Assembly (NCBI GenBank): GCA_963674595.2
Contig: CAXXFV010000029.1
Span: 32,001-96,000, forward strand
Source of the DNA: a bacterium
Lineage (GTDB): Bacteria > Zhuqueibacterota > Zhuqueibacteria > Residuimicrobiales > Krinioviventaceae
Length of the DNA: 64,000 bases
Direction of reading: 5' to 3'
Position numbers and translations under genes: made by a program. The notes beneath the pieces were generated by a model. The model did no database searches and was not told where the DNA came from. It saw nothing but the letters and a program-made list of their open reading frames with translations. This document shows, one piece after another, positions 3,520 through 56,986 of the stretch; the first letter of the stretch is position 1; each line of letters begins with the position of its first letter.

Positions 3520-4042
3520 TTCCCGGGACGCACGTAGGCAGAGATAATTTTAACGTTATGGAAAAGGAATTTCAAGAGGATCAAACCAGGCAGGGATTAA
3601 AAACTTTACACCCCTGCCCTGCTGCACTTTTAATCCACAACCACAGACAACACATTTTGTGCGGGAAAAATGTGCTAAATTCTTTAAAAACCACTTGCAC
3701 TAATGAGCCAAAATTTGTAACATTATTTTATCAGTTCTAAAGGATTGTTTGAAGGACAATTGGGTCACACGTGGGAAAAGGTTCAGGTCCTTTAGCTGAT
3801 TTACCACACATACAAACGGGCTTTATACACACACGAGGAATAGATTGCGTCGGTCACAAAATCACATTCCTTTTGTTTCACATTCACAATTTTTGGGTTG
3901 GGTGACGTGCGTTCGGACGATGATAAATCCGCTCGTTTTGGGACTGTTTTCTGGGACGTAAGTAGACAGAGATAATTTTAGCGTCATGGAAAAGGAATTG
4001 AAAGACAATCAAACCAAGCAGGAGTTAAAAATGTAAAATCCC
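3520..4042. repeat. imperfect ~95-bp direct repeats (about 3520-3615 and 3950-4042) flanking a promoter-RNA module
   Basis: GGGACG..GTAG.CAGAGATAATTTTA.CGT.ATGGAAAAGGAATT...ATCAAACCA.GCAGG in both. Confidence 0.75.
3695..3905 (+). ncRNA. promoter + conserved structured leader/ncRNA module, copy A
   Basis: TTGCAC(3695)-17bp-TAACAT, then ATCAG..AAGGA..GGACAATTGGGTC..CCTTTAGCTGAT..ACGGG..CACACGAGGAA..GATTGCG..AATCACATTCCT shared with the other copies. Confidence 0.65.
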
Positions 4043-4213
4043 TAAATATAAGGTCGGATTGTACAATCGCACATTCGTAAAGACGCACGGCCTCTCTACC
4101 ACGACGGCAACCGCTCTCAGAACCGGCAAACGAGAAACAAGACACAGTTATTATAATTATGAGCATGGAAATATTTTAAGCTGCAAAATACAAAACAAAA
4201 ACAGGAGGTATAA

Positions 4214-4402
4214 ATGTCGAGACGTTATTTTTGTCATAAATGTAACCCCAAGCGTGACATTACTGAATTAGTAAATAAAAAATTAAACGCTAATATGTCA
4301 GTGATGAGAAATATTACTATCTCTGACGAGGATGATTACGACGAAATAATTGTTACATGCCCGGAAGGTCATAAAAATCTTTTTAAAATACCAAATTATT
4401 AG
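4214..4402 (+). CDS. small putative Zn-ribbon protein
   Basis: AGGAGG RBS; CHKC...CPEGH metal-ligand pattern. Confidence 0.6.
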   Translation: MSRRYFCHKCNPKRDITELVNKKLNANMSVMRNITISDEDDYDEIIVTCPEGHKNLFKIPNY

Positions 4403-4410
4403 GGTGAAAC

Positions 4411-5166
4411 ATGAATGAAAATGAAATTATTGAAGAGATTACAGGTGAAAATGTATCTGAAGAGCTGGAAAAGGAGGTACAAACTTATCAATCTATTTTA
4501 AGTTACGAAGCAAGTATAAAGAAAATAGACGAATTTACGAAATGGATTTTCAGTGCATCAAGTATTGTCGCGGCATTAGGCGCCGGTTTTTCATCTGTTT
4601 ATTTTAACAATTTAGAAGGTATTAGTATATTATTATTTGGAATCAGCATTTTACTTATCACCTTTGTTCTATCCCTATCTGCATTTGCCTATGCTCCCAT
4701 AATCTTTACTTACAATCCAAATAAAATAAACATTTTAAAATATATTATAGAAAAATATTTAATTCGAAGAAGAGGTCTTCAAATTCGAATAGCCGGGATA
4801 TTATTTGCCCTGGCAATATTATTGGCCGGGTTGTCACCGTTAATTACCAAAGTTTTATATAATAAAAGTTCATTGAATGTGAATTACGAATACCTGAATA
4901 ATAGCAAAGTTAAGATATCATTTTCCGGTCAAAAGTTAAAACCAAACTCACAGCTAGCAATAAATATGTTTATTGTAAAAAACAAAAAATCCGTCAAAAT
5001 TGCTTCACTTAACAGTACCATTGCCGTCGGCGGTCATTATGAAAAAGAACTTTTATTTAATAAAATGGATGACCTGTTATCGTCAGATACTTTAAATATT
5101 GACTGCACGCTTTTATATAATAATTCTATTAAAAGCGATACGACCTATTCATTATATCTGAAATAA
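4411..5166 (+). CDS. hypothetical membrane protein (about 3 TM helices plus soluble C-terminal domain)
   Basis: 251 aa ORF starting 8 nt after the Zn-ribbon gene. Confidence 0.7.
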   Translation: MNENEIIEEITGENVSEELEKEVQTYQSILSYEASIKKIDEFTKWIFSASSIVAALGAGFSSVYFNNLEGISILLFGISILLITFVLSLSAFAYAPIIFTYNPNKINILKYIIEKYLIRRRGLQIRIAGILFALAILLAGLSPLITKVLYNKSSLNVNYEYLNNSKVKISFSGQKLKPNSQLAINMFIVKNKKSVKIASLNSTIAVGGHYEKELLFNKMDDLLSSDTLNIDCTLLYNNSIKSDTTYSLYLK

Positions 5167-5304
5167 CAGAAATAAAGCAGTTGCGCAACAAGGCAATCAT
5201 ACCGGAAAATGAACCGTGTTTGCTGAGAATATAACTAAATCCAGGAGTCAGTATGTTCAAGCTCTTTTTCGGCTTATTACAATCGTTATAATTGGAACCA
5301 TGCC

Positions 5305-6515
5305 ATGAAGTTTAAATTCAAAAATCCGTTTTCTATTTTAATAATACTCTTTTTTTCATTTTTTGCTCAAGCCCAGGATTCTAAAGAGTTTAATAAATTA
5401 TACTATAAAATAACGGCGAATCCGGTTTATAATGTCAAGAAGGAAATGACTCGACAGCCATACACCAAATCTATGAATACATGAACCACGTTAAGAAATT
5501 TTTAGAAACAGAACACAAGCTTAACGGCACAGGCCAATTTCAGTTTGCCGGGAACGAATCAAACAGCAATGACCTGCTCAAGCTTAATGTTGGGTTGACC
5601 ATCGATTATGGTATATACCCCTATGAATTTGATTTTTCCAGCAAAACAAATGCTGTGCTTACAAATGGTGAGTTTCAGGAAAATGTATCCGACATTGATG
5701 TTTCATTCGATTTACACCCCTTTCACCTGCCTGATACAAGTATAAGTGATGACCATGCCGGACTAGGGTTTGAAAATTATGTGTTTCTCAAAAGGCTTAA
5801 TGACGATTTTTTAGGGATCAACCAACGTTATGAAATCGGCACCGGTTTTATTTATAACATTTATACCGGAGGATTGACGGAAACAGGCGAAAAGCATAAA
5901 AAGGACCTGGACAAAGTATCCACAATTAAAAACCAGGATTTGATAAAATTTCTTGAAACATGTACCGATGCTAAAAATAAACTTGGCTTGTCGACAGAGG
6001 AATGTGGAACGCTCAGAAAAATGGAAAATGTAATTAAAAGAACAAACAAGAAACAATACTCCAAAGTAAGGGCCGCCCTGCTGTTGGGACTTTACTATGA
6101 GATCGACGACGCAAAAGCCTATAACACCATCAGGTTCAACAATGTTGATACATTAATGACACAATCATTTGAAACAACAAACAAATTAAAAGTTTCAATA
6201 AGGCCCACATTTGCCTGGAAACCGTCAGACAAATATTCCTTTTATTGCCGGTCATATTTTAAATTTCCTTTCAAAATCACAGATAAAATTTCAGCAGGCA
6301 ATTTAATGAGTGAAAAGAAGGATATTTTTATTGATTTAAAAGCATCCCTGAATATGAAAGTCGACCAGGATTTTACAATTGGTCTGGAATACAGACTGCT
6401 TTATGATTGTGCACCCAAAAGAATATATTTATTCGAAACAAACGGCCATCCGGTATTGCTGACCGGACAAAATCATCACAGTACCTTCGGACTGGTATTA
6501 AAATATAATTTTTAG
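5305..6515 (+). pseudogene. outer-membrane beta-barrel protein (DUF481-like) split by a 1-nt frameshift near 5435-5445
   Basis: 5305..5484 encodes a signal peptide (MKFKFKNPFSILIILFFSFFAQAQD); the other frame is open from 5433 into 5481..6515, which ends in the barrel signature LKYNF. Confidence 0.6.
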
Positions 6516-7001
6516 ATGATGATATGGCGTGGATTTACAAGTTTTAAACCGCCCCAAGGGTCCGCAGGCCGGCCAGGAATTCATAATTCGATATGCAGGG
6601 CGCTGTTTACCTGCGCCCTGCTTTCTGACGGATCCCGGAACGATCAATTATTCAAATGAAACCCGATAGAACAACGCTTTTCACACACCACACACACTGA
6701 CACTCACTTTCCTCTAACCTCTTTTAGAATCCGCTTATGACATAGAACAATTCAGAAACTACCTGGTCATAAAAATTTGGATACATTCATGATCAACAAA
6801 CACTCACCAAATACAGGCGGCATGGGCATTCGCAGCCCAATGCCGTCATTGAAAAAGTTGACTCGTTATATTATCAAACCCGTTCAATGCCATGTTGTTT
6901 TATACTTGTTTCGCGCATAAAAATCAAGACTCATTACCTGATTCATAAAAAATTTAATAACGAATTCAAGACATGTAATTTTGACAAAGGAGGCGTTAAA
7001 A

Positions 7002-8411
7002 ATGAAAAAAAGAATCACATTTTTATCAGTCCTTGTTATTTTCAGTATTATTGTTTTTTTCATTCAGTGTGGCAGCTCATCGCATTTAGAGTGGGTACGC
7101 ACTTTTGGCAGCACAAAGCCCGACGCCCCATACGGTTTAGTTGCAGATAGATCGGGAGCGTATATTACCGGCTCTTATTATATTATTGAAACCGTAGATA
7201 GTTCTACTCAATGTTTAGCTTTGATGAAATACAATCCCGATGGAATTCTGGAATGGGTGGATACATATAAAAATGGTTATGCACAATCACGTCCGATATT
7301 ATACCAAAGTGGAAAAGTGAAACATATTTATCTTATGGGAATAACAAAAGCCGTAGGAGATAGTAATGACTATTTAACACAAAAATACAGGGACAATGAT
7401 GGGCTCGCATGGAGCAATGTTTACACTTACTTTGATACTATAAGAGTTGATACGACGAGAATTGATACCGTTTATATAGATAAGGATGATAATCCGCATG
7501 GACTGGCTGTAGATTCTGATGCAAATGTGTATATAACCGGGTCAAGTTATAACGACGATACGGATGAAATTCTTACAATTAAATATGATAAAAACGGCAA
7601 TGAATTATGGAAAAAGAGATACCCGGATGATGAATCTGCCAAAGCAAATGGAAGTTCAGTCGCTGTTTTGGATAATTTTGTTTATGTATTTGGAAGCATA
7701 GGTGACCCGTCGGATTTTATCACACTTAAATATGACGCTCTGGAAGGTGATTTGCTGCAAAAACATATCTTTGATAATGGTAATGGATATAGAGATGATT
7801 CTAAATCCATGGCTTTTGATAGTGATAAAAATTTGTATATAACCGGCACGGCCTGGAATGATGAAGTAGATTTATCTTTAAACAGGGACATTATAACCGC
7901 TAAATATCAAAATGGGGATTTGTCAGTTCCACCAACCATTACGAGATATAATTATGAGGATGCCGACCGGTTAGATGAAGGAATGCAAATCATAACAAAA
8001 GCAGGATTCATTTATGTGTTAGGTATCAGTTGTGGTTCGACAACAGAATCGGATATCGTATTAATAAAATATGATCCTGATTTAACGGAAGTTAAAAATG
8101 TTCGTTATAATAACACACCTGTTAATAAAGCAGATTGGGCCTATAGATTTACTATGGATGATTATGGAAATTTATATCTGGCAGGGTCCAGCCAGAGTAT
8201 TGATGATAAATTCGATATAATAACGCTAAAGTATGATGCCGATCTTGAGTTACAATGGCTCCAAAGGTATGACAGCGGCGGTATTAACGATATTGGTCTG
8301 GATATAGCCCTATCAAATATTATAACCAATCATAATGATATTTATGTGATTGGCCGGAGCGTTTCAGAATTAAATGATGCCGATCATGTGCTGCTCAAAT
8401 ACAGTGAATAA
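7002..8411 (+). CDS. SBBP/beta-propeller repeat lipoprotein
   Basis: GGAGG before ATG 7002; lipoprotein-like Cys after a hydrophobic stretch; repeated 'D..GN.YITG' and 'DIITLKYD..G...W' motifs. Confidence 0.8.
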   Translation: MKKRITFLSVLVIFSIIVFFIQCGSSSHLEWVRTFGSTKPDAPYGLVADRSGAYITGSYYIIETVDSSTQCLALMKYNPDGILEWVDTYKNGYAQSRPILYQSGKVKHIYLMGITKAVGDSNDYLTQKYRDNDGLAWSNVYTYFDTIRVDTTRIDTVYIDKDDNPHGLAVDSDANVYITGSSYNDDTDEILTIKYDKNGNELWKKRYPDDESAKANGSSVAVLDNFVYVFGSIGDPSDFITLKYDALEGDLLQKHIFDNGNGYRDDSKSMAFDSDKNLYITGTAWNDEVDLSLNRDIITAKYQNGDLSVPPTITRYNYEDADRLDEGMQIITKAGFIYVLGISCGSTTESDIVLIKYDPDLTEVKNVRYNNTPVNKADWAYRFTMDDYGNLYLAGSSQSIDDKFDIITLKYDADLELQWLQRYDSGGINDIGLDIALSNIITNHNDIYVIGRSVSELNDADHVLLKYSE

Positions 8412-8519
8412 TAATTCCAGCATCAGGGAATAAATAAAACATATAACGCCCTGTTCGTTGAAAAACGCACTTGGTTAAATTTACCCGCTCGCAGGAGATT
8501 TGCACCCCCCTGCGGGATT

Positions 8520-8575
8520 TTCGATCGACCAAGGGTTCATATCCTTGGTCGGAATAATAAGAGGGCTTTGCCCTC
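8520..8575 (+). repeat. REP hairpin flanking RAYT (TTGATCG family)
   Basis: GATCGACCAAGG..CCTTGGTCGG stem plus AGGGCTTTGCCCT second hairpin. Confidence 0.8.
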
Positions 8576-9121
8576 CTAGCTTAAACATTCCTTATTTATG
8601 GTTATAAGGGCATTATCATCCAATATCCAGTTTTGCGTGCTGCTGTATTTCCAATACTCGGGCCTTTCGACAAATCCTTTGCGAACAGGATTATTGTGCA
8701 GATAATTTAATTTTTCAAGTAACCATTTTTCAGATTTCAAAGCAACCGGATGATATTCATCTTTCCATACTTTGTATTGCTGCTTTGGCAACCGGGAAGC
8801 CGCTTTTTCAAATATATTTATAAATTGAACCCTTTTGTCATTTTCCAATAACTCCCTGACTCTTTTTGATGTATATTGGCGAAAATCTCTCATAATATTG
8901 GATAGACTTGTTTCAGGTGTGTTCCATGTTATTAAATGTATATGAGTCGGCATAATTACATATCCAATGAGAAAAAGTCCTTTGTTTGCCTGGCAATATT
9001 TTAAGCTGTCCATGATAATTTGAAAATATGATTGATTTTGAAAAATCGGCAACCAGGCTGTTAAGGTGCATGTTGAATAATAAAAATTGGTTTCCGTGTC
9101 GTATATTTTGTAACGTTTCAT
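8576..9121 (-). CDS. REP-associated tyrosine transposase (RAYT, Y1 HUH family)
   Basis: YVIMPTHIHL (HUH) and YLHNNPVRKG..P..W.YSS motifs; flanked by inverted REP hairpins. Confidence 0.92.
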   Translation of the reverse strand: MKRYKIYDTETNFYYSTCTLTAWLPIFQNQSYFQIIMDSLKYCQANKGLFLIGYVIMPTHIHLITWNTPETSLSNIMRDFRQYTSKRVRELLENDKRVQFINIFEKAASRLPKQQYKVWKDEYHPVALKSEKWLLEKLNYLHNNPVRKGFVERPEYWKYSSTQNWILDDNALITINKECLS

Positions 9122-9146
9122 TTGATAATTCTCGTTCTTTTATCTA

Positions 9147-9200
9147 AAGGCATAGCCTTTATTTTATTACGTCCGGAGGTAGGAACCTCCAGACGATCAA
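9147..9200 (-). repeat. REP hairpin flanking RAYT, inverted orientation
   Basis: CGTCCGGAGG-TAGGAA-CCTCCAGACG followed by ATCAA (reverse complement TTGATCG...). Confidence 0.8.
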
Positions 9201-9286
9201 AAACGCACCAGTGAAATAATTTTGATTTGTACAAATTAATACAAGGGCTTTGTCCTTTTAAGTTCTTTGCTATAAAGTCACAGCCT

Positions 9287-10429
9287 TTATTTCAGCAAAA
9301 TCAATCTCCTTGTTTCAGAAAAATGCTCTGTTTGCAACCGGTAAAAATACACGCCGTTTGATAATCCATTGGCCTGCCAGACTATTTGATGTTTTCCGGC
9401 GGACTGAAAACCATTAACCAGCGTTTCCAATTGCCGGCCGGCAAGGTCGTAAATTGTCAGTGTCACATGAGATGAACCCGGCAGGTTGTAGGGAATGGTG
9501 GTTGATGGATTAAACGGATTGGGGTAATTTTGCGATAAATGAAACGTCGTTTTTTTAGCCGGTCTGTGTGGCTGCGGTACAGATGTAGAATAATCCTTGC
9601 TATGATTTTTGAAAAATTCCCAGATAACATCCGTTGCTTTAATGCCGGTGGACGGCCATTCGTGCGACGAGTTGGCGATTGTATAAAGGTCAATGTCGCC
9701 GTGACTATCCAACGCATGCCAGCTTATTTTTTTAACGCCAAAAGCCACATCAACAGTATCCGGCCGGGGATTGCAGTTGTTTTCATTGGCCCATAACTGC
9801 AAAGTATAATGTACGGGGATGATAAACGCGCCTTCGTAAAGTACGACAGGATCATAAAGACTATGAAAGTGAACGATTGCCAGCGGGTATTCCGGCTCAA
9901 AACCAAAGTATGCCATTCTCCCGGCGACCGGACCGATTGCTGATATGATATGGGATAGTTCAACACCCAGATGATATACCATAAAACCACCCAGAGAAAC
10001 GCCTGTTACAAAGATTTTGCTGGAATCAATTTTGTAATGGCGGCGTAATGTATCAATAAGTACGGATACAAATTCAACATCATCCCGATTATTCGTCAGT
10101 TCTGCATAACCAGGACCGCCTATGTTCCACAGTCCGTCTATGCCGCTTGGAAAGGCGACGATAAATTTTTCGGCATCGGCTTTGGCTGTCCATTGCGGCG
10201 TAACAGACCAGGTTTCTCCGGCGCCGCCGCGGCCATGGAATCCCAGCACAAGCGGATAGGCTGTTGAATCCGAATAACCGGCGGGAAGATGCAGGTAATA
10301 GGACCGGGTGTATACGATATTCGGATCGTTTTTGTCCGTTACATAAAGCTGCGTTTCCTGAGAAAATAACAAACTGAAACAGGGAAAAATGATACCCCAA
10401 AATAATGCCGCTGCATATTTCTTGACCAT
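9287..10429 (-). CDS. PHB depolymerase/LpqC-like esterase with C-terminal secretion (T9SS/FlgD-like) domain
   Basis: PLVLGFHGRGG, GVSLGG nucleophile motif, SQNYPNPFNPSTTI C-terminal domain. Confidence 0.88.
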   Translation of the reverse strand: MVKKYAAALFWGIIFPCFSLLFSQETQLYVTDKNDPNIVYTRSYYLHLPAGYSDSTAYPLVLGFHGRGGAGETWSVTPQWTAKADAEKFIVAFPSGIDGLWNIGGPGYAELTNNRDDVEFVSVLIDTLRRHYKIDSSKIFVTGVSLGGFMVYHLGVELSHIISAIGPVAGRMAYFGFEPEYPLAIVHFHSLYDPVVLYEGAFIIPVHYTLQLWANENNCNPRPDTVDVAFGVKKISWHALDSHGDIDLYTIANSSHEWPSTGIKATDVIWEFFKNHSKDYSTSVPQPHRPAKKTTFHLSQNYPNPFNPSTTIPYNLPGSSHVTLTIYDLAGRQLETLVNGFQSAGKHQIVWQANGLSNGVYFYRLQTEHFSETRRLILLK

Positions 10430-10498
10430 TTTTTACTCCTTTCTTGTTCACCCCGGAATTGCTTTTCCGGGTGCCGACAGCCGTTTGGCTGTTTTCTC

Positions 10499-10632
10499 TT
10501 GATCGCACAAGGGTTCCACCCTTTTACGGAATAACAAAAGCGCTTGACCCTTTTAAGTGAACCAGGTTCTTTGTTATAAAGGCAACGCCTTTATTTTATT
10601 GTGTCCGTATATTGGAACCGCCGGACGATCAA
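10499..10632. mobile_element. REPIN-like inverted REP doublet
   Basis: TTGATCGC.. at 10499 and ..GGACGATCAA at 10632; internal TTCTTTG(C/T)TATAAAG segment also at about 9260, 12205 and 12480. Confidence 0.6.
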
Positions 10633-10981
10633 TCCTTCGACTCCGCTCAGGATGACACCTCTCCCGCTTCGACTCGGGCCTTGAGCGGAGCCGAAAGGCC
10701 GCTCTGCTCGCAGGGGATTTGCAATCCCATGCGGAACCAATGAATCAGGGTTTTCATCCCTGTGATCCTACTTAAATAACTATATCATCCTTTCGGGATT
10801 CAATGGAGCCGGTGCCTTTTATCTATAATACTACCTCTACCCTCCGACGGAATAACTAAAGGGTTTTGCCCTTTTTATGTAAAGACCAAGCCTTTACTTT
10901 TCTGTGTCTTTATTATTTATTTATTGCCGGGTCATAGGTGATGATCCAGCCGACAAAAACAACTTCACTCCTGCCAACTTT

Positions 10982-12013
10982 TTATAAACGGCTATAGGTT
11001 ACCCAAAAGTCACCATAATCTGCGCTTTGTAACAATATTTGCAACTGTTTTTCAGAATTGAATTTTATTGGTATAAGTTCATTTTTATGGATACTGGCAT
11101 CAGGAGGCAGGTCCCAATTTTTATACAAACAAAATAGATAATAATCATTATTATATTTCATTATTTCAAAACTTCCGACATAGAGCGTTGTATGATTTCC
11201 ATGCATATGACTTTCATATACTTTATAGTTGGAAATTGTTCCGGACTTTGCAAACATAAATTCCGAATAAATGGAATAATAACCTTGAACATAGGTGGCT
11301 TTCCACATACCAATAATGAGCAGCTCATATTCATAAGGCTCGCGGACGGTAAAAGTCTTTGTACTGCTCCAGTCACTTATTTGTTTACTGTTCAGTGCCC
11401 TTACCCGCCAATAATACGTACCCAACGGCATGGAGGATGCAGGCGTATATTCTGCTTTGGGTATAGTTGAATCGTGAATTATCGGGCTGTTAAAATCAGC
11501 ATCATCATCAACAATCAGTTCATAATTTACAGCATCGTTTACCGTATTCCATGAAAATAAAGGTGTTTTATTTTTTGTGTCTGATTCATCTTTAGGGGCT
11601 ATCAGCACAGGTGCCGGCGGCGGTATTAATGTTTGAATAAGTGTAAAACTCCATACCGGCGTCCAATCGCCCCACACACCATCAGCATCCCTTGCCCGAA
11701 CCCGCCAGTAATAGGTGCCCAGAGAAAATTCTTTTGTTGGTGTATAGCTGTTATCCGGCGTCTTCTGCGTCAGCTCGGGACTGAGAAAGGTTTTACCCTC
11801 GTCAATGGCAATATGATATCCGGTTGCCCCGTTTATTTTGTTCCATGTGAACGTCAGATCAGGTGTTTCGAGGCTGGTTCCATTAACCGGATTTTGTAAA
11901 GAAAGGATTTTATTACCATTCATATCATTTTGGTCAACTTCGCTTGGTGACTTACAAAATAGCAAAAATGATAAAGCTGTAATACCTAATCCAAAACAGA
12001 ATTTGTAAAACAT
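10982..12013 (-). CDS. lipoprotein with two fibronectin-III-like domains
   Basis: GGAGG then ATG at 12013; two 'LGTYYWRVRA' repeats. Confidence 0.82.
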   Translation of the reverse strand: MFYKFCFGLGITALSFLLFCKSPSEVDQNDMNGNKILSLQNPVNGTSLETPDLTFTWNKINGATGYHIAIDEGKTFLSPELTQKTPDNSYTPTKEFSLGTYYWRVRARDADGVWGDWTPVWSFTLIQTLIPPPAPVLIAPKDESDTKNKTPLFSWNTVNDAVNYELIVDDDADFNSPIIHDSTIPKAEYTPASSMPLGTYYWRVRALNSKQISDWSSTKTFTVREPYEYELLIIGMWKATYVQGYYSIYSEFMFAKSGTISNYKVYESHMHGNHTTLYVGSFEIMKYNNDYYLFCLYKNWDLPPDASIHKNELIPIKFNSEKQLQILLQSADYGDFWVTYSRL

Positions 12014-12535
12014 TTTGACCTCCAATGATTTTAATACGTCCCGGAAATTCTGTTCCTGGACGTTAAAATACTCTCACCGCTCGCAGGGGATTTGCAAAAC
12101 CCTTCGGAACCAATGAAACAGGGATTTCATACCCAAACCAAAATATTTGATCGTACAAGGATTCTACCCTTGTACGGAATAATAAAAGGGCTTGGCCTTT
12201 TAAAAAGTTCTTTGCTATAAAGTCACAGCCTTTACTTTTCTGCGTCTTTATATTATTTATATATTGCCGGGTTATAAATGATGACCCAGCCTGCAACTTT
12301 TCAATGGTGCAGCAGAACTGCACGCTCCTGACAGGTTGAAATAATTTTCACTCCAACGCAGAGGCGCAGAGCACGCTGAGATTCGCAGAGGTTAAAAATT
12401 TCTCTCTGCGGTCCTCTGCGATCTTTGCGGCTCTGCGTTAAAATAAACTCGAACAAAAGGGCTTGGCCCTTTTAAAAAGTTCTTTGCTATAAAGGCAACG
12501 CCTTTACTTTTCTGCTTCCGGTTATATATAACATG

Positions 12536-12747
12536 ACGCACCCAACCCAAAAACGCCGGATGTGAACCAACAGGAATATGATTATGTGATAAACGCAATC
12601 TCTTCCTCGTGTGTGTGTATGAATCCCATATCTGTGTGTGGAAAATCAGCAAGGACGCCAGGAACTCCCAGACTCGACCAAATTATCCTGTAAACTGTCC
12701 GTTATAGCTGATAAATTAATAATACAAATTAAATAAAATCAAGGCAA
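12536..12747 (-). ncRNA. promoter + leader/ncRNA module, reverse-strand copy N
   Basis: Reverse complement reads TTGCCT-17bp-TATTAT then ATCAGC..GGAC..CAGGA..TCCTG..GTCCTTGCTGAT..CACACGAGGAAGAGATTGCG..TAATCATATTCCTGTTGGTTCAC. Confidence 0.7.
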
Positions 12748-12934
12748 GAGGTTTTTGAAAAATATTAAAAATAATTGATGGCCCAAAAAAAGCAGAGACG
12801 CACGGCCGTGCATCTCTACCAATGTGCGTCCCCGCTCGCGGTATCAAAAGTTCTTGAGCTGACCCTTTGTGTTCTTTGTGCCCTTTGTGAGAGAATACCC
12901 CCCTGCACTATTTTCAACATTTCTCAAAAATTCC

Positions 12935-12963
12935 TTGCACCAATGACACAAAATTTGTAATAT
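12935..12963 (+). promoter_or_regulatory. repeated sigma70-type promoter (no RNA module) upstream of the satD-like gene
   Basis: TTGCAC-17bp-TAATAT with the CCCCTGCACTATTTTCAACATT upstream block seen in other copies. Confidence 0.7.
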
Positions 12964-12982
12964 AATTCCATACTATCCAATA

Positions 12983-13057
12983 TGAACCAATTAGGTTCAA
13001 ACCTCACACAATGAACCAATAAAGTTCAATTAATTGTATGTGAACAAAATAAGTACA
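12983..13057. promoter_or_regulatory. three palindromic operator-like boxes TGAAC-N7-GT(T/A)CA
   Basis: Boxes start at 12983, 13012 and 13041 (29-bp period). Confidence 0.6.
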
Positions 13058-13084
13058 GCAGTAATAAAGAGAATAGGTATAAAA

Positions 13085-13717
13085 ATGAAATATCTCGCTG
13101 TGATTGCAGATATTATTAAATCCAGAGAAATTTTAAATAGAGAAGATTTCCAATTAAAGCTTACAAATAAATTGGAACAACTAAACAACTCTTCGAAAAA
13201 TATTATATCCCCGTATACAATAACGTTGGGAGATGAATTTCAATCAGTATATAAATCTGCTGATGGTCTGCTTGAAGATTTTTATGAAATATTAATTGAA
13301 TTATATCCCGTCAAAATTCGATTTTCCGTAGGACTGGACCTCATTTCCACAAATTTAAAGACAAATACATCTTTGGGAATGGACGGCCCCGCTTTTTATA
13401 AAGCCAGGGAAGGAATCGAAACTCTAAAAAACAAAAAAATTTCACTCGTCCAGTTTTTCAGTTCACAAACAGATGAGTTGGATCTGATTAATAAAAGTTT
13501 AATTTTGATGAACAGCATAATGAATAATTGGAAGTATAATTCATTATTTATATTTAATGAGCTTTTAAATACAAATCAAATTCCCAAAATTGCAAACAGC
13601 CTCGAAATATCTACCAGGGGTGTTTATAAAACAATAACAACAAATAACATTAAAGAATTTGTACGAATGCATCAAATGATAGAAAATTATTTAATAAAAG
13701 AAATAAACAGAGAATGA
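13085..13717 (+). CDS. SatD family protein
   Basis: IADIIKSR, TITLGDEFQ and MDGPAF..AR motifs; C-terminal HTH-like segment; ATG 13085 preferred. Confidence 0.88.
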   Translation: MKYLAVIADIIKSREILNREDFQLKLTNKLEQLNNSSKNIISPYTITLGDEFQSVYKSADGLLEDFYEILIELYPVKIRFSVGLDLISTNLKTNTSLGMDGPAFYKAREGIETLKNKKISLVQFFSSQTDELDLINKSLILMNSIMNNWKYNSLFIFNELLNTNQIPKIANSLEISTRGVYKTITTNNIKEFVRMHQMIENYLIKEINRE

Positions 13718-14473: not shown

Positions 14474-14623
14474 AACACTTTATTTCACATAACAATGTGC
14501 GGCACTTGACTGGCAGGCGGTATTTCAATTTCAGAAGATGAGCGCCAAAATTTTTCAAGAACAATCCAAATAGTGGGTAAAAATCTCCCCCCTGCACTAT
14601 TTTCAACATTCCGCAAAAATCCC

Positions 14624-14826
14624 TTGCCTTGATTTTATTTAATGTGTATAATTATTTATCAGATACAAGGCGTGTTTTTAGGACGATTGGGTCGGACATA
14701 TGAGTTCTGAAAACCTTGACTGATTTACCACTATTTTTTTAAATACGGGTTTTAACAGCACACACGAGGAAGAGATTGCGCTATAGCTATAATCATATTC
14801 CTGTTGGTTCACGGTCTCAAATTTTT
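14624..14826 (+). ncRNA. promoter + leader/ncRNA module, copy C
   Basis: TTGCCT-17bp-TATAAT (extended TG), then the full conserved module. Confidence 0.7.
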
Positions 14827-16530: not shown

Positions 16531-16737
16531 TTGCCTTGATTTTAATTAATGTGTATAATTATTTATCAGATACAAGGCGTGTTTTCAGAACAATATGGTC
16601 GGACATGGGAGTTCTGAAAATCCTGACTGATTTACCACTATTTTTTTAAATACGGGTTTTAACCACACACACGAGGAAGAGATTGCGCTATAGCTATAAT
16701 CACATTCCTGTTGGTTCACGGTCTCAAATAGTTGGGT
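16531..16737 (+). ncRNA. promoter + leader/ncRNA module, copy D
   Basis: TTGCCT-17bp-TATAAT; TTTTCAGAAC(16582) is the perfect complement of GTTCTGAAAA(16611). Confidence 0.7.
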
Positions 16738-17208: not shown

Positions 17209-17210
17209 CC

Positions 17211-17624: not shown

Positions 17625-17784
17625 TTGCCTTGATTTTAATTAATGTGTATAATTATTTATCAGCTACAAGGCATGTTTTCAGAACAATATGGTCGGACAT
17701 GGGAGTTCTGAAAACCTTGACTGATTTACCACTATTTTTTCAAATACGGGTTTTAACCACACACACGAGGAAGAGATTGCGTCG
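17625..17784 (+). ncRNA. promoter + leader/ncRNA module, copy E (3'-truncated)
   Basis: Same promoter and hairpin 1 as copy D; similarity stops after GATTGCGTCG. Confidence 0.65.
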
Positions 17785-17817
17785 CTCAGTATAATATTAT
17801 AATTCAAGGAGATTAAA

Positions 17818-18027
17818 ATGTTAAATCCAGCACCATCAACTCAGGAAATTATTATTATTTCAGTCGTGTGCCTCCTTCCGATTGTTCTGTTTTGGAAGAT
17901 ATTTAAAAAAGCAGGATACCCGGGAGCGTTATCTCTATTACTCTATATCCCTGTTGTAAATCTGGCTCTATTGATATATTTCGCATTTGCAAAATGGCCA
18001 ATTGAACATAAATTGAATGCGAATTAA
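17818..18027 (+). CDS. small membrane protein
   Basis: AAGGAG RBS; WKIFKKAG.PG..SLL..IP.VNL..FAF.KWP motif. Confidence 0.8.
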   Translation: MLNPAPSTQEIIIISVVCLLPIVLFWKIFKKAGYPGALSLLLYIPVVNLALLIYFAFAKWPIEHKLNAN

Positions 18028-18544: not shown

Positions 18545-18546
18545 CT

Positions 18547-18963: not shown

Positions 18964-19178
18964 TTGCCTTGATTTTAATTAATGTGTATAATTATTTATC
19001 AGAAAGGCGTGTTTTCAGAACAATATGGTCGGACATGGGAGTTCTGAAAACCTTGACTGATTTACCACTATTTTTTTAAATACGGGTTTTAACAGCACAC
19101 GAGGAAGAGATTGCGCTATAGCTATAATCATATTCCTGTTGGTTCACGGTTTCAATTATTTTGGGGTTGGGTGGGGTG
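18964..19178 (+). ncRNA. promoter + leader/ncRNA module, copy F
   Basis: TTGCCT-17bp-TATAAT; full module ending TTTTGGGGTTGGGTG like copies A and N. Confidence 0.7.
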
Positions 19179-29362: not shown

Positions 29363-29560
29363 TTGCGCCAATAACACAAAATTTGTAATATGTATTATCA
29401 GCCATAAAGGACGATTTTTCAGGACAATTCGGTCGGATATGGGAGTTCATGAAAACCTTTAGCTGATTTACCACCTTAAAATTTATATATGGGAAGTTAC
29501 AGCACTTGCGAGGAAAGATTGCGTCGGAGTTATAATCATATTCCTGTTGTTAGCACTCAA
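29363..29560 (+). ncRNA. promoter + leader/ncRNA module, copy G
   Basis: TTGCGC-17bp-TAATAT; ATCAGC..AAAGG..TTTTCAGGAC / GTTCATGAAAA..CCTTTAGCTGAT; GAGGAAAGATTGCG..TAATCATATTCCT. Confidence 0.7.
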
Positions 29561-33144: not shown

Positions 33145-33173
33145 TTGCGCTAGTTCTGTATAATTTGTAATAT
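33145..33173 (+). promoter_or_regulatory. repeated promoter without RNA module
   Basis: TTGCGC-17bp(..AATTTG)-TAATAT. Confidence 0.6.
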
Positions 33174-36158: not shown

Positions 36159-36528
36159 TTCCTGTGGCGCCAATCAGGCAAGGTATGTACACCGTTAAAT
36201 TTAAGGTTTTATAATTAATATGGACCCGTTATTTAAGAACGGATCAGGGCAATATGCCCTGTTTTATTTTACGGCCCGGAAAAGGAGTTCCGGGGCGAGC
36301 ATGGTTTTGCCGCACCATTGAGTATTTAATATATAAATAAATTCAGAGCCGTGTCACCCTGAGCGAAGTCGAAGGGTGACTGGATTCCTGCTTTCGCAGG
36401 AATGACGGGTTTTAAGCCCTTTGTGTGCTCTGTGACCTCTGTGAGAAAATATCCCTTCCCCATTTGCGTTTAAAGCATTTCTAAAAAAAATCACACCTTC
36501 CCCCATCTTTTTAAAAATCATTTGCGCT
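36159..36528. repeat. intergenic module Y (second copy 40183-40554)
   Basis: Near-identical ~370 bp ending in the repeated promoter. Confidence 0.88.
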
Positions 36529-36720
36529 AATACTGAATAATTTGTATTATTCATTTATCAGCCACAAAAGACTATTTTCAGGACGATTGGATCGCGCATG
36601 GGAGTTCCTGATGTTCTTTTACTGGTTTTCCACTATCTATAAAAACGGGATTTAAAAGCATACACGAGGAAAAGATTGCGTCGGAGTCCATAGTACACTC
36701 TTGTTACTCCATGGTGTTAA
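36522..36720 (+). ncRNA. promoter + leader/ncRNA module, copy I
   Basis: TTGCGC-17bp-TATTAT; TCAGGA(36578)/TCCTGA(36606); ACACGAGGAAAAGATTGCGTCGG. Confidence 0.65.
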
Positions 36721-39753: not shown

Positions 39754-40576
39754 TGCCCGGCCTTTCGACTCCGCTCAAAGCCCGGACTCTGTGGACGTTG
39801 AGCGAAGCCGAAGGGTGGCTGGATTCCTGCTTTCGCAGGAATGACGGGTTTCGATCACATTGTGTCCTTTGTGTATTCTTTGTGTCCGTTGTGGTAAAAA
39901 GATAACCATTTAAAAGTGATTCAATGCAGAGGTTGCAAAGGCGCGCAGAGGGAACCGAAATTTGCCCATCCTTAAAGCGGACGCTGCCCGGCCTTTCGAC
40001 TCCGCTCAAGGACCGGACTTTGCGGACGCTGAACGGAATCGAAGCGGGTGAACAGGGTAAAGCCCATTTTTATCTAGTATCCCGGAAAAAATTTTTAAGA
40101 TGATCAAACCATGCAGGGGTTAAAAATCTTTAACCGCTACACATATCAACTGAACGCCCAAAGATTTTGCTGACGCTGCAACTTCCTGTGGCGCACATCA
40201 GGCAAGGTATGTACACCGTTAAATTTAAGGTTTTATAATTAATATGGACCCGTTATTTAAGAACGGATCAGGGCAATATGCCCTGTTTTATTTTACGGCC
40301 CGGAAAAGGAGTTCCGGGGCGAGCATGGTTTTGCCGCACCATTGAGTATTTAATATATAAATAAATTCAGAGCCGTGTCACCCTAAGCGGAGTCGAAGGG
40401 TGACTGGATTCCTGCTTTCGCAGGAATGACGGGTTTTAAGCCCTTTGTGTGCTCTGTGACCTCTGTGAGAAAATATCCCTTCCCCATTTGCGTTTAAAGC
40501 ATTTCTAAAAAAAAATCATACCTTCTCCCCATCTTTTTAAAAACCATTTGCGCTGGTTCTGTAGAATTTGTATTAT
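39754..40576. repeat. modules X+Y joined directly (empty allele), ending in a promoter for dut
   Basis: Only 15 bp (40168-40182) between X and Y; TTGCGC(40548)-17bp-TATTAT. Confidence 0.85.
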
Positions 40577-41252: not shown

Positions 41253-41445
41253 TTGCACCGGTTTTATTTAATTTGTATTATTCTTTTGATAGCCATATTA
41301 GACTTTTCAGGACAATTGGGGCGTGCATGGGAGTCCCTGATGTCCTTTTGCAGGTTTTCCATGATTATTAAAAACGGGATTTAATTACAAAATATATTGT
41401 ATTTATATTATTTACAAAACATTACCGAATTATGCTATGTGTTTA
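41253..41445 (+). ncRNA. promoter + leader module, copy K (hairpin 1 plus alternative AT-rich tail)
   Basis: TTGCAC-17bp-TATTAT; TCAGGAC..GTCCCTGA; AAAAACGGGATTTAA; tail shared with copy L. Confidence 0.6.
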
Positions 41446-47030: not shown

Positions 47031-47184
47031 CCGCAGGTTGCGCTTCTACCGCACCATTATGTAAAAAACAAATTCAAAGCCGTGTCACCCTGATCGGCCT
47101 TTCGACTCCGCTCAAGGACCAAGTCGAAGGATGACCGGAAAACAGGTTTTTAACAAGATCGTAACTCTAACCGGAGCCATTAAC

Positions 47185-49236: not shown

Positions 49237-49465
49237 AATGGGCCATTTAAGCCCATCATTTAACCGATACTTAAATTTGTAATTATTTGTATAAATATTT
49301 TCCCTACGGTTATCTTTTTGCCGGGTTCCACAAAAGAATCCGACCTACAACTTGGAAGATCAAGGGATGAAATCCCGAATTCATTGGTTCCGCAGGGGAT
49401 TGCATATCCCCTGCGAGCGGAGAATTGCCCAAATGTAAAAGAATGGAAAGTAAAGGTTTAAGCTT

Positions 49466-51546: not shown

Positions 51547-51942
51547 TGGGTGGGTTAAATAATAATTACTATTTCCAAATCGATGTATAATAATAGATGT
51601 GATGCAGTAAATTCAATAGTGCGGACAGGAAGCTTGAACGTTGCGTATTCTATACGCCAGGTTACAAGTTGCAGGCCGGCATACAATTTTAAACCATGTC
51701 ATTTTTATATTTAAAGCGGACCCTGAGCGGCCTTTCGACTTCGCTCAAGGACCGAGCCGAAGCGGGAGCATGAATGACAGGTTTCGAACCTTCTGCGATC
51801 TCTCCGCCTTTGCGTTAAAAGCAATTTTTAAAAAAAACCACCATCACCCCGGGTAAACCGTCATTTTCCTTTAAATTCAATAAAAATGAGTCAATCCGTT
51901 GCAGAATAATATATAATTCTATATATTATTACAACGAGTTGA

Positions 51943-53895: not shown

Positions 53896-54119
53896 GATGA
53901 CAGTTGCTTTTTATAAGCGGGAAAGTCGACCTAGTGTCACCCTGAGCGGAGTCGAAGGGGGACACTTTTGGGATAGGGGATGAAATCCCGGTTTTATTGG
54001 TTCCGCAGGGGATTTCCAATCCTCTGCGAGCGGAGGCGTTTAGGCGGTTTTTGATGCCCTGCTGTTTTTATTAATTATCAACCTCTGCCCTACCCTCACC
54101 TATTTTTCTCAAAAACCAC

Positions 54120-54370
54120 TTGCGCTAATACTGTAGAATTTGTAATATTCTTTGTCAGCCATACAGGACTGTTTTGGGGACGATTGGTCGTGCATGGGAG
54201 TTCCTGAGGTCTTTTTGCTGGTTTACCATTATTATTAAAAACGGGATTTAAGGGTACAATATATTGTATTTATATTATTTACAGAACATTGTTGGTATAT
54301 ATTATATAATATATTTATAAAATTTATTATAGGTAGTTATCAGATTTGTTTAACACTATGCTATGTGCTT
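54120..54370 (+). ncRNA. promoter + leader module, copy L (hairpin 1 plus alternative tail)
   Basis: TTGCGC-17bp-TAATAT; GTGCATGGGAGTTCCTGA; AAAAACGGGATTTAA; AATATATTGTATTTATATTATTTACA. Confidence 0.6.
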
Positions 54371-54428
54371 TAGAAATAAGTTAATCAATAATAAAATTTT
54401 CATATAACGATAGAAAAGGAATTTTAGC

Positions 54429-56174
54429 ATGTCATATGAGACTGCATTGAAAATTGTAGATGTAATTAGTGACATTCACAAAAAAAGATACCTTCTTCCA
54501 GCAATACAAAGAGAATTAGTATGGGATACTGAACAAATTGAAAAATTATTCGATAGCCTTATGAGAGATTATCCAATTAGTTCTTTTTTATTTTGGAAAG
54601 TCGAAAAAGATAAAGTGAATGAATATGAATTTTATGAATTTATAAGAGATTATCATGAGAGAGATAAACAACATAATCCAAAAGCAAATGTGACAGGAGA
54701 TGATGAAATAACCGCAGTGTTGGATGGCCAACAAAGATTGACATCATTATATATAGCATTAAAAGGGACATATGCTTATAAATTGCCACGGAAAAGATGG
54801 GATAATGATCAAGCATATCCAAAAAGAAAGCTATATTTAAATCTGGTAAAAATGTCAGACGAAGCTGATTGTGAATATGATTTTAAATTTTTGACTAAAG
54901 AAGAGTCTCAAAAAAACAATGATAACAATTACTGGTTTTCTGTTGGAAAAATTCTAAATTTAAAAGAGCCTGGTGACGTTAGTGAATATTTAAGTGAAAA
55001 TGTATTTGATGATTATTCCAAAGAAAAACGAAAATTTGCTAATAAAGCACTATTCAAATTACATAACGTTATTCATGAAAGGGGTTCCATCAGCTATTAC
55101 CTCGAAAAAAGTCAAATATTAGATAAAGTTTTAAATATTTTTATTAGAATAAATAGCGGTGGAACTGAACTAAATTATTCAGATTTATTGCTTTCAATAG
55201 CTTCGGCTCAATGGAAAAAAAGAGATGCAAGAGAAGAAATAATAAATTTTGTTGATGAATTAAATAATATTGATGGTGGTTTTAATTTTAATAAAGACTT
55301 TATTTTAAAATCTTGCTTGATTTTAAACGACTTTAAGGATATAGCATTTAAAGTTGATAATTTTAATAAAAAAAATATGGTTAAAATTGAGGATAATTGG
55401 GAAAAAGTTACTAATGCAATTAGATTGTCAGTACATCTTGTTTCAAGTTTTGGTTATAACAGAGAAACACTTACATCAAATAATGCTTTAATTCCAATTG
55501 CTTACTATTTACAAAAAATTAATGCTCAAGAAACTTATATAAATTCCTCACGAAATTTAAGTGACAAATCGGATATTAAAAGGTGGTTAATTTTATCGCT
55601 TATTAAAAGAACTTTTAGCGGTCAACCAGATAATGTGCTTCGCCCAATTCGAAATATAATAAAAGATTCAAATTCCAGTTTTCCATTGAAGCAAATAATA
55701 AATAAATTTAAAGGAACAAATAAGTCACTAATATTTTCTGATGAAGATATTGAAAATTTAACACTTTACAAATATGGACAGGGCTTTACTTTTTCTGTCC
55801 TTTCATTGATATATCCAAATTTGGATTATAAAAATCAATTTCATATTGACCATATACATCCCAAGAGTTTTTTTACTAAATCACAACTTAGAAAAAAGGG
55901 AATACTTGACGAAGATATAGAAAATTATCAAGATTATGTTAATTATATTAGTAATCTTCAAATATTAGAAGCGACACCGAATATAGAAAAACTAAACAAA
56001 GATTTTGAAACTTGGCTGGATAATATTTGTCCTGATGAAGACTCAAGAAATGAATACATAAAAACTCATTTAATTCCAAATGTTAATTTAAACTTCAAAA
56101 ATTTCATCGAATTTAGTGATAAAAGAGACAAATTGCTAATACATAGATTAAAAAAGATGTTACAAGCAGATTAA
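54429..56174 (+). CDS. GmrSD-like DUF262-DUF1524 restriction endonuclease
   Basis: LPAIQRELVW, LDGQQRLT, F.RINSGG, HIDHIHP, NLQ. Confidence 0.9.
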   Translation: MSYETALKIVDVISDIHKKRYLLPAIQRELVWDTEQIEKLFDSLMRDYPISSFLFWKVEKDKVNEYEFYEFIRDYHERDKQHNPKANVTGDDEITAVLDGQQRLTSLYIALKGTYAYKLPRKRWDNDQAYPKRKLYLNLVKMSDEADCEYDFKFLTKEESQKNNDNNYWFSVGKILNLKEPGDVSEYLSENVFDDYSKEKRKFANKALFKLHNVIHERGSISYYLEKSQILDKVLNIFIRINSGGTELNYSDLLLSIASAQWKKRDAREEIINFVDELNNIDGGFNFNKDFILKSCLILNDFKDIAFKVDNFNKKNMVKIEDNWEKVTNAIRLSVHLVSSFGYNRETLTSNNALIPIAYYLQKINAQETYINSSRNLSDKSDIKRWLILSLIKRTFSGQPDNVLRPIRNIIKDSNSSFPLKQIINKFKGTNKSLIFSDEDIENLTLYKYGQGFTFSVLSLIYPNLDYKNQFHIDHIHPKSFFTKSQLRKKGILDEDIENYQDYVNYISNLQILEATPNIEKLNKDFETWLDNICPDEDSRNEYIKTHLIPNVNLNFKNFIEFSDKRDKLLIHRLKKMLQAD

Positions 56175-56243
56175 ATGAAAGAAGGATTGATCGTCCCGGG
56201 ATTCTACCCTGGAACGTAATAACATAAGGGCTTGGTTCTTTAA

Positions 56244-56810
56244 ATGTGCCAGAGAAAAATCATGAAAAAAAACACTGTTATATTTTTTTTAACGCTTTTA
56301 ATTACCTTCTATTTCCATACCAATGCTACGGCTGATGATATCTTTCCTGATCATAATGGAACTTTTATCAACGACTTTGCGAATTTAATAGATCAAAAGG
56401 ATGAAAATATCATAAAATCCCTTTGTGCTGATATTTTTAAAGATGAATTGGCTGTTATTGTTGTATGTACTATTGAATCCTTACCGAAAGTAAAGAAAGA
56501 GTATAATGATCCTCTTCTTTATGGAACTGATTTATTTAATTACTGGGGTATCGGTCGAAAAGGTATTAATGATGGATTACTGATATTAATAAGCAAGGGT
56601 GATAGCAAAGCTGCAATTTGCACAGGCTATTTAATTGAGTATTATTTACCTGATCCTGATGCAGACATTGTATTAAAGTCGTATATGTTTCCTCATTTCA
56701 AACAAGGTAATTATGGCAAGGGTATTATAGAAGGTATTATTGAAGCAAGAAAAGTGATGGAGAAAAACCGCAGATTATTATCTCATGAGAAAAATGGGGA
56801 AAGAAAATAA
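56244..56810 (+). CDS. TPM-domain protein
   Basis: INDFANLI, LFN.WGIG..NDGLLIL, FKQGNY..GI. Confidence 0.85.
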   Translation: MCQRKIMKKNTVIFFLTLLITFYFHTNATADDIFPDHNGTFINDFANLIDQKDENIIKSLCADIFKDELAVIVVCTIESLPKVKKEYNDPLLYGTDLFNYWGIGRKGINDGLLILISKGDSKAAICTGYLIEYYLPDPDADIVLKSYMFPHFKQGNYGKGIIEGIIEARKVMEKNRRLLSHEKNGERK

Positions 56811-56916
56811 AGCTTACTTTTCGTTGCTTTGCCAAGTTTGATCGTCCCGGAATTTTATCCCTGGACTCCAAATAAATCAGGGCTTACTGCCCTCCCCCAT
56901 TTTTCTCAAAAACCAC

Positions 56917-56986
56917 TTGCGCTAAAACTGTAGAATTTGTAATATTCTTTGTCAGCCATAAAGGACTGTTTTTTCAGGACGATCAA
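56917..56986 (+). promoter_or_regulatory. promoter + first ~35 nt of the module (copy M), ending at a REP-like end
   Basis: TTGCGC-17bp-TAATAT; GTCAGCCATAAAGGACTGTTTTTTCAGGACGAT then CAA. Confidence 0.6.

Follow-up and report, generated by a model that had tools for sequence, protein, structure and literature searches.

A repeated promoter with a predicted structured leader before accessory genes: a putative lineage-specific expression module

What is the role of a promoter that recurs 14 times within 64 kb, in most cases with the same structured sequence behind it, before genes of diverse families? This question is raised by a stretch of 64,000 nucleotides (positions 32001-96000 of contig C29; G000:C29:32001-96000), here referred to as "the window", from an assembly of 6.62 Mb in 37 contigs. 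The source is taken to be an FCB-group bacterium; its 16S sequence is 81% identical to those of two Ca. Latescibacterota chromosomes, and cargo proteins of the type IX secretion system (T9SS) are present. The window has a G+C content of 39.6%, and nearly all of its long open reading frames (ORFs) are on the plus strand. With moderate confidence, we read the repeated unit as a lineage-specific multicopy expression module, in which a predicted strong sigma70-type promoter and a non-coding structured 5' leader stand before about 80 unrelated, mostly accessory units. The leader consists of an imperfect hairpin (P1), a linker and a second stem (P2).

The promoter-leader unit in the window and in the genome

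A preliminary description of the window had listed 14 copies of one sigma70-like promoter. All of them are present, with the -35 boxes starting exactly where they had been listed: a promoter profile (nhmmer) matched only these 14 sites in that part of contig C29 which the window covers, and a repeat search of the window grouped 12–13 of the 14 sites (families D4/D5/D12). The consensus is composed of an A-tract, TTGC(A/G/C)N, 17 nt and TA(T/A)(A/T)AT. The motif CACACGAGGAA occurs eight times in the window (with at most one mismatch) against 0.70 expected, and eight occurrences were reached in 0 of 100 shuffles. Ten of the promoters are followed by a leader, which begins 3–5 nt past the -10 box, one (56917) by a leader fragment, and three (12935, 33145 and 40548) are promoter-only copies. 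A covariance model, R1, with 160 positions and 31 base pairs and built from 42 full-length copies, finds the same ten leaders that had been claimed, while the claimed fragment keeps about 35 nt. It is also correct that the single minus-strand copy faces minus-strand genes. The copies are given below with their R1 scores; "repeat grouping" marks promoters placed by the repeat search.

3695..3723 (+), promoter, TTGCAC-17-TAACAT; 3728..3882 (+), full-length leader (P1, linker, P2), 131.6 bits, with a G-rich extension TTGGGTTGGGTG at ~3895-3906
12719..12747 (-), promoter, TTGCCT-17-TATTAT; 12561..12714 (-), full-length leader, 147.2 bits, facing minus-strand ORFs 12063-12323 and 10982-12025
12935..12963 (+), promoter-only copy before a SatD-family gene (13034-13717)
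14624..14652 (+), promoter, TTGCCT-17-TATAAT; 14656..14813 (+), full-length leader, 140.2 bits, before an outer-membrane beta-barrel gene (14924-15631)
16531..16559 (+), promoter (repeat grouping); 16563..16720 (+), full-length leader, 140.6 bits, before a Gp49/HTH toxin-antitoxin pair (16870-17504)
17625..17653 (+), promoter (repeat grouping); 17657..17818 (+), leader with P1 and linker intact, 105.4 bits, which diverges within P2 and enters a short ORF, then a second Gp49/HTH pair
18964..18992 (+), promoter (repeat grouping); 18996..19148 (+), full-length leader with G-rich extension, 132.3 bits, before a Schlafen AlbA_2 gene (19386-20261)
29363..29391 (+), promoter, TTGCGC-17-TAATAT; 29395..29556 (+), full-length leader with an alternative 3' extension (TTGAGCAGGGCAAAATTGTG), 147 bits, before a GFA gene (29783-30190)
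33145..33173 (+), promoter-only copy before a DEAD-box helicase gene (33296-34759)
36522..36550 (+), promoter (repeat grouping); 36555..36713 (+), full-length leader, 133.5 bits, before the gene of an LVIVD/T9SS-tail protein (36917-39049)
40548..40576 (+), promoter-only copy before a dUTPase gene (40643-41077)
41253..41281 (+), promoter (repeat grouping); 41286..41416 (+), leader with P1 and linker only, P2 being replaced by other sequence, 67.9 bits, before a type I restriction R subunit gene (41482-44280)
54120..54148 (+), promoter (repeat grouping); 54152..54283 (+), leader with P1 and linker only, P2 being replaced as at 41286, 86.9 bits, before a GmrSD gene (54429-56174)
56917..56945 (+), promoter (repeat grouping); 56949..56985 (+), leader fragment with the 5' arm of P1 only, no R1 match, before a LigB-family gene (57034-57804)

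In the whole genome, R1 gave 87 leader matches (E<=0.01) on 19 of the 37 contigs, and a profile hidden Markov model (nhmmer) found 84. Mean column identity across the copies is about 70%, with most copies 60–80% alike. Contigs C29, C26 and C13 carry 38 of the 87 leaders in 7.6% of the genome, the 421-kb contig C4 has none, and the copies within clusters are mostly co-directional. Directly upstream of 85 of the 87 leaders lies a promoter of the form TTGNNN-(16-18)-TANN[AT]T, whose spacer is 17 nt in 78, and the -10 box ends 3–4 nt ahead of R1 position 1 in 74 of these 85 promoter-bearing copies. The first paired base is R1 position 3 and thus lies 6–7 nt past the -10 box, where RNA polymerase normally starts. 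The organism's rRNA promoters differ from that of the module and have the form TTGACA-17-TAnnTT. The retention of both promoter boxes (-35 and -10) in 85 of 87 copies, despite an identity of about 70%, argues for selection on expression, not for neutral repeat decay.

The leader is about 160–215 nt long, and many copies run about 40 nt past the end of the R1 model. A GGG[TC]1-2GGG core is found at a fixed offset (median 12 nt) past the model in 17 of 87 copies, compared with 0.6% of random windows, and other leader subfamilies carry a different 3' extension. A G-quadruplex in this extension was considered and rejected, four G3 tracts being present in two copies only. On the opposite strand, sigma70-like sites (TTGAGA/TTGAAA-17-TATGAT) were flagged within the 3' part of three leaders, at 14792-14820 (-), 17796-17824 (-) and 19127-19155 (-). 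They could drive antisense transcription across the leader, but may be due to chance because the region is AT-rich, with 44 such sites found versus 29.7 expected.

We also searched for the leader outside this genome. Rfam 15 gave no match in the whole window at gathering scores; one leader copy searched by E-value gave chance matches only (E of at least 2.2), and 20 further copies gave no match on the leader position. BLAST of one copy against 40 relatives returned 0 matches. With the best 19–68 candidates scored per genome, R1 matched none of 42 other genomes from the order, nor any of 150 other genomes sampled from the phylum (105 of high quality); the genus is represented by this genome alone. 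An exact pattern found in 22 of this genome's 84 copies gave 20 single matches in genome contigs, 26 in metagenome and 3 in viral contigs of public collections, and a second pattern gave six in viral contigs. Neither nhmmer nor R1 identified a homologue among them, and the two matches in Ca. Latescibacterota chromosomes fall inside coding sequence. A literature search aimed at the general phenomenon, not at this organism, gave no description of the leader family. The family looks like an expansion within this lineage.

Orientation and the genes behind the leader

The downstream gene was defined as the longest ORF of at least 100 aa beginning or ending within 700 nt downstream of the leader. 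It lies on the same strand in 81 of 87 cases and on the opposite strand in two, and four leaders have none; for 1000 random positions and strands, the corresponding numbers are 485, 506 and 9. Orientation into the next gene, which the preliminary description had made a test of its own proposal, thus holds genome-wide (81/87 against about 50% at random). Between leader end and ORF start, the median gap is 193 nt (interquartile range 113–304). The 81 downstream proteins form 74 BLASTP clusters, the largest with six members. Within the window, Pfam assigns them to diverse families, including toxin-antitoxin, restriction-modification, defence and T9SS-secreted proteins, and this agrees with the cargo that had been named. 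The Schlafen AlbA_2 gene in the window, for example, stands ahead of genes for a C5 methylase and an EcoRII-type enzyme.

Terminator-like sites (hairpin and T-run) were found within 230 nt 3' of the leader in only 7 of 87 copies, compared with 124 of 1000 random windows, while upstream of the promoter such a site is present in 26 of 87 copies. These counts mean that the module tends to open a new unit and to run on into the next gene. An attenuator was rejected, there being no general terminator after P2. Moreover, some leaders lead directly into a start codon, as do the window copy at 17657 and the copy before the integron integrase gene intI on contig C3. No conserved reading frame was found, at most six of 75 copies being open in any of the six frames, so that the earlier statement of "no common reading frame" stands. 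ATG-started ORFs of 15 codons or more do not recur at any one position in the leader, and a leader peptide is not conserved.

The same data bear on the explanation that the copies are independent trans-acting small RNAs, with read-through into the next gene as an incidental event. Each copy does combine a promoter of its own with a conserved, structured stretch of about 200 nt, and terminator-type repeat modules follow a few copies, e.g. 12561-12714(-). However, a terminator-like site after the leader is rarer than in random windows, same-strand ORFs follow at a short median distance in nearly all cases, and several copies enter a start codon directly. We regard this explanation as very unlikely, and the small-RNA option left in the preliminary description is disfavoured by the 7 of 87 count.

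The leader as RNA and its proposed role

P1 is an imperfect hairpin of about 75 nt, with helices of 6, 7 and 7 pairs parted by internal loops. Its closing stem has the consensus ATCAGC ... GCTGAT, and its apical loop of 20 nt is highly conserved (..AAUUUGGUCGNGCAYGGGAG..). The linker carries conserved UUUACCA and ACGGGAU. In P2, which is preceded by CACAC, GAGGAA..GAUU pairs with AAUC..UUCCU. The unpaired stretches, namely the P1 apical loop, UUUACCA, ACGGGAU and CACACGAGGAAGAGAUUG, are conserved equally to or above the stems.

In the model-fitted alignment of 75 copies, 85.1% of cells are in standard pairs versus 80.3% in shuffles, and both-side changes occur at 25 of 31 pairs (115 cells); the observed values were reached by 0 of 500 shuffles on any of five measures. 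When the partner was slid by 1–3 columns, pairing fell to 30–50%. The two inner P1 helices have double changes in all 14 pairs; for instance, pair 31-95 is GC in 40, AU in 13 and GU in 7 copies, and pair 19-104 is CG in 18, UA in 12, UG in 9 and GC in 3. Because the model-fitted alignment leans towards the structure, we repeated the count on a structure-blind MAFFT alignment of the 42 closest copies. Here 84.6% are paired (31–48% in slid controls), and double changes are found at 15 of 31 pairs, which was reached by 1 of 500 shuffles. On a plain MAFFT alignment, RNAalifold predicted only a 5-bp closing stem; the inner P1 helices come from a hand-drawn structure and model-based realignment. Helix cells hold 177 G-U/U-G against 96 A-C/C-A, an excess that fits sense-strand folding. 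In single-copy folding, the P1 topology closed at nucleotide 1 was obtained in 13 of 16 copies, including the diverged copies L099, L105, L109 and L104, whose stems differ in sequence. A mutual-information scan for pseudoknot or tertiary pairs gave no convincing extra helix, and the highest-scoring pair (columns 149-161) seems to reflect subfamilies. Taken with the covariation, the lack of an Rfam family and of a conserved frame bears out the claim of a non-coding structured element, foreign to Rfam and with its own promoter. An Rfam match and missing covariation, both of which the preliminary description had named as refuting its proposal, were thus not what the analysis gave.

How might such a module work? 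We propose that any gene behind it would obtain from it a strong promoter and a standard 5' end. RNA polymerase would start 6–7 nt past the -10 box, at the first paired base of P1 (the predicted start), and each mRNA would carry a long imperfect hairpin at its very 5' end, with no single-stranded tail before it. The 5'-terminal hairpins of the ompA, aprE and ermC leaders protect their mRNAs from 5'-end-dependent decay, and by analogy P1 may protect the mRNA in the same way from its extreme 5' end. Probably, the conserved unpaired stretches are either bound by a shared factor or engaged in tertiary contacts, and the leader probably does more than stabilise.

Several points weigh against this expression module. 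First, promoter, start site and leader are all predictions from sequence, and 25 of 84 promoter-profile matches genome-wide have no leader, which means that the leader is dispensable for at least some units. Second, the model-fitted alignment (A2) was itself fitted to the structure, and covariation in the structure-blind alignment is modest (score 0.166 vs 0.154, reached by 7 of 500 shuffles); the shuffle tests also overstate the support because the copies are related paralogues. Compensatory changes had been claimed for the first stem, and P1 does keep its pairing through double changes. Support for P2 is weaker and comes mainly from conservation and G-U changes: it has double changes at 7 of 11 pairs in few cells, and its variation is mostly one-sided. 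Third, P1 is not the minimum-energy fold in 3 of 16 copies, and its stability is unremarkable (z from +0.55 to -3.45; below -1.8 in 5/16 and above -0.5 in 7/16). The G-U excess, at 1.8 to 1, also leaves room for a DNA hairpin, since G-T is the least harmful mismatch in single-stranded DNA. Finally, a pure stabiliser does not explain the conserved unpaired stretches, and this makes a regulated switch the main rival.

According to this rival, the leader is a cis-regulatory RNA through which one trans factor (a CsrA-like protein, a processive antiterminator or a small ligand) moves about 85 units together, the hairpin and loops being the binding site. Besides the conservation of the unpaired stretches, three conserved GGA motifs (the apical loop of P1 has AUGGGAG, the linker ACGGGAU and the 5' arm of P2 GAGGAA) and the one csrA gene of the genome agree with it. 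So do the position of the leader directly after the promoter, which is also that of the put RNAs of phage HK022, and the terminator-like sites that are common between units. However, a partner was looked for among NusG paralogues, boxA and antisense sites, and none was found. A GGA motif lies in a hairpin loop for one of the three only, and CsrA binding would be a weak alternative for the leader. A riboswitch-like class present in one genome among 151 sampled from the phylum would also be unusual. On balance we consider a regulated switch unlikely, if less so than the other rivals.

Three candidate partners were rejected. The genome has a second NusG-domain protein (174 aa; G000:C7:125383-125658 (+), L148), whose gene stands directly after a Wzc-like chain-length/tyrosine-kinase gene; this polysaccharide locus is the usual context of an UpxY-type specialised antiterminator, and it is unlinked to the leader family, with no leader beside it. 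As for a Nus/boxA leader, the GCUGAUUUACCAC of the leader is unlike the organism's rrn boxA UGUUCUUUGAAAA; the rrn leader has TGTTCTTTGAAAA, and a comparison by hand shows the GCTGATTTACCAC of the module's leader to agree with it at about 5 of 12 positions. For a trans antisense partner, three motifs of at least 20 nt had 0 complementary sites outside the known copies in the same genome.

If the proposed working of the expression module is true, it would be a natural portable expression cassette, reused before about 80 unrelated genes, many of them for defence, toxin-antitoxin, restriction or secreted proteins. It would represent one way in which an uncultured and little-studied FCB-group bacterium expresses newly acquired genes, and its sequence alone would be enough to delimit a large regulon. 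For genetics in a group with few tools, a compact promoter-leader part would become available, and the conserved unpaired stretches mark a probable binding site for a factor.

Spread of the module and comparison with known systems

From copy number and sequence divergence alone, we infer that the module has spread within its lineage. Spread would have occurred by duplication and recombination, not by classical transposition, and the module would have been kept because newly arrived genes gain a working start. Within the window, the copies at 14624, 16531, 17625 and 18964 are 76–98% alike by local duplication, and a toxin-antitoxin unit is duplicated at 99% identity (family D6). Near-identical pairs of at least 300 nt, namely 16793-17092/18129-18428 (99%; the Gp49/HTH unit), 36159-36458/40183-40482 (99%) and 34917-35216/39799-40098 (97%), indicate recent unit-level duplication within the array. 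Elsewhere in the genome, multi-kb repeats that are about 88–94% identical to each other lie upstream of some leaders and are of two kinds:

B1, upstream of the leaders C3:116775, C10:51936, C9:142312 and C25:5570, with helicase-like ORFs and then a 64-aa ORF (...YLRDVYYKY)
B2, upstream of the leaders C3:77527, C9:127630, C5:26204 and C29:6923, with SSB and other phage-like ORFs

B1 and B2 probably represent integrated mobile elements in several copies, with an outward-reading promoter-leader at the end of each.

The copies might instead belong to a selfish or neutral interspersed repeat such as a miniature transposable element with inverted repeats (MITE), Correia element or bcr1, with the hairpin serving mobility or RNase III processing, the promoter as a side effect and the orientation bias produced by loss of harmful insertions. 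The high copy number in one lineage only and the clustering of copies in islands on three contigs agree with this, and there are precedents that carry promoters or RNA-level compensatory changes (Correia, PMC2649163; bcr1, PMC3184786). However, no transposon ends were seen on the module copies. There are no terminal inverted repeats, the sole inverted repeat being the internal P1; the 5' flank and its boundary vary by subfamily, and conservation fades gradually at both ends without a definable sharp border, so that the module does not fit a classical MITE. In addition, the retention of the -35 and -10 boxes at about 70% identity argues for selection on promoter function, and the pointing of 81 of 87 copies into the 5' end of a gene is far more extreme than is known for MITEs. 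We think a selfish repeat quite unlikely.

A further explanation places the function in the DNA, with P1 folding as single-stranded DNA into an attC-like recombination site or serving as a homology arm for cassette exchange. In its favour, the window is a co-directional array of small units parted by repeat modules, and one true integron integrase (TIGR02249, 453.7 bits vs a cut-off of 265) stands directly behind a leader. This intI gene (G000:C3:115823-116767 (-), L138) starts a few nt past the leader C3:116775-116929(-), within a long run of minus-strand genes and with no obvious cassette array beside it. Contigs from other samples also span parts of the window with gaps the size of a cassette, the edges of which fall within regions of intergenic repeats (run X6 record 24, run X3 record 12). 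Positions 3000-16450 of the window were compared with contigs of runs X1, X3, X4 and X6, many joints coming from paralogous copies and other organisms (85% likeness). A 9-kb contig of run X6 tracks this part at about 97% but lacks ~8467-9272 and 10500-11163 and has about 900 nt extra between 12067 and 12496, and in one from run X3 position 10835 adjoins 12452. From these differences, entire units may have been gained and lost between strains at intergenic repeats, although short-read contigs break at repeats and the junctions are not placeable.

The P1 stem ATCAGC/GCTGAT, however, is unlike the attC core RYYYAAC/GTTRRRY (by inspection of the P1 consensus), and it is RNA, not recombination, that accounts for the constant spacing to the -10 box. 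Also against it, intI is not beside the window, no obvious cassette array flanks it, and the contig joints derive from metagenomes assembled from short reads, such assemblies breaking at repeats. A function at the DNA level is the explanation to which we give the least credence of all.

Four further repeat families were found in the window:

28315-29255 and 32758-33045, arrays of tandem repeats (period ~124-125 nt, also scored as 195 nt; 2.3-2.9 copies per row; 90-95% matches), containing TTTGTGT-type short repeats and the hairpin GGATTCCTGCTTGCGCAGGAATG
17522-17591, 18858-18927, 41116-41185, 47087-47156 and 51720-51789, and also 34844-34909, 35103-35168, 39754-39819 and 39985-40050, a second intergenic repeat family (..CCCTGAGCGGCCTTTCGACTCCGCTCAAGGACCGAGTCGAAGGGTG..) of imperfect inverted repeats, often just upstream of the promoter-leader
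10499-10566, 12147-12214, 56187-56254 and 63131-63198, with inverse copies at 9134-9200, 10566-10632, 12479-12545 and 32626-32692, a post-gene repeat module made of a perfect small hairpin and then a terminator-like hairpin, often ending in GTTCTTTG
106-166, 341-401, 32703-32763, 49364-49424 and 53977-54037, a REP-like family of 61 nt in five copies (84-100% identity) with two hairpins, GGGATGCAATCCC and CGCAGGGGATTGCAAATCCCCTGCG

The 8-mer GTTCTTTG also lies inside the rrn boxA TGTTCTTTGAAAA, which may be a coincidence.

As a speculation that goes beyond the proposed expression module, and that we hold to be doubtful, a "standard 5' end" on about 85 accessory and defence units might let one dedicated factor, protein or ligand, switch the whole accessory genome. 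The promoter-leader and terminator modules might then act as homology arms for cassette exchange between strains, in an RNA-level, RecA-based counterpart of the integron.

Finally, the module was compared with known systems. The put RNAs of phage HK022 and the Bacillus EAR element are structured processive-antitermination RNAs that act in cis on the transcription complex. Like them, the structured RNA of the module is predicted right after the promoter, but there is no sequence or Rfam similarity to them and the stem arrangement differs. With the stabilising leaders of ompA, aprE and ermC, the module would share a hairpin at the extreme 5' end of the mRNA and almost no unpaired 5' nucleotides. 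However, those hairpins are features of single genes, whereas that of the module would be shared over about 80 units and lies inside a longer conserved leader.

Correia elements have a TA target duplication and insert in either orientation. These Neisseria repeats (Correia/CREE) can supply a promoter to the adjacent gene and are co-transcribed, forming an RNA hairpin that is bound by RNase III and affects the fate of the transcript (PMC2649163; also cited in PMC3575422). The module resembles them as an interspersed repeat with a promoter for the neighbouring gene and, as predicted here, an RNA hairpin. In contrast to Correia elements, which are MITEs with terminal inverted repeats, it has no such repeats, and it carries a single internal hairpin at the predicted start and leads into genes in 81 of 87 copies. 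The bcr1 repeat of the Bacillus cereus group is a lineage-specific repeat of ~155 bp that is transcribed and in which compensatory changes keep an RNA structure of varying stability (PMC3184786). The module is likewise a lineage-specific repeat with compensatory changes and a stability that varies between copies. It differs from bcr1, which has flanks of 5-bp direct repeats and, in the passages used here, is not described with its own promoter, by a promoter at fixed distance, and no direct-repeat flanks were seen.

Putative mobile promoters are the nearest concept, as Correia elements and bcr1 are the nearest repeat families. They are similar upstream non-coding sequences before unrelated genes in one genome, which are not tied to known insertion sequences and some of which may hold RNA motifs (PMC3575422). 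Their families are mostly pairs with about 92% identity, defined on positions -150 to -50 (PMC3575422; Matus-Garcia, Nijveen and van Passel 2012). The module, too, places a similar upstream sequence before non-paralogous genes (74 clusters among 81 proteins). By the mobile-promoter criterion of at least 80% identity over at least 50 nt, some pairs of module copies pass on identity (families D3 and D9), while most are 60–80% alike. Unlike mobile promoters, the module has 87 copies at about 70% identity, defined -35 and -10 boxes, a long structured leader and covariation, and it sits about 200–500 nt upstream of the start codon, beyond their -150 to -50. From these nearest systems the module thus differs by four features: no transposon ends, a near-uniform orientation, a fixed promoter-hairpin geometry and a long leader with conserved unpaired motifs.

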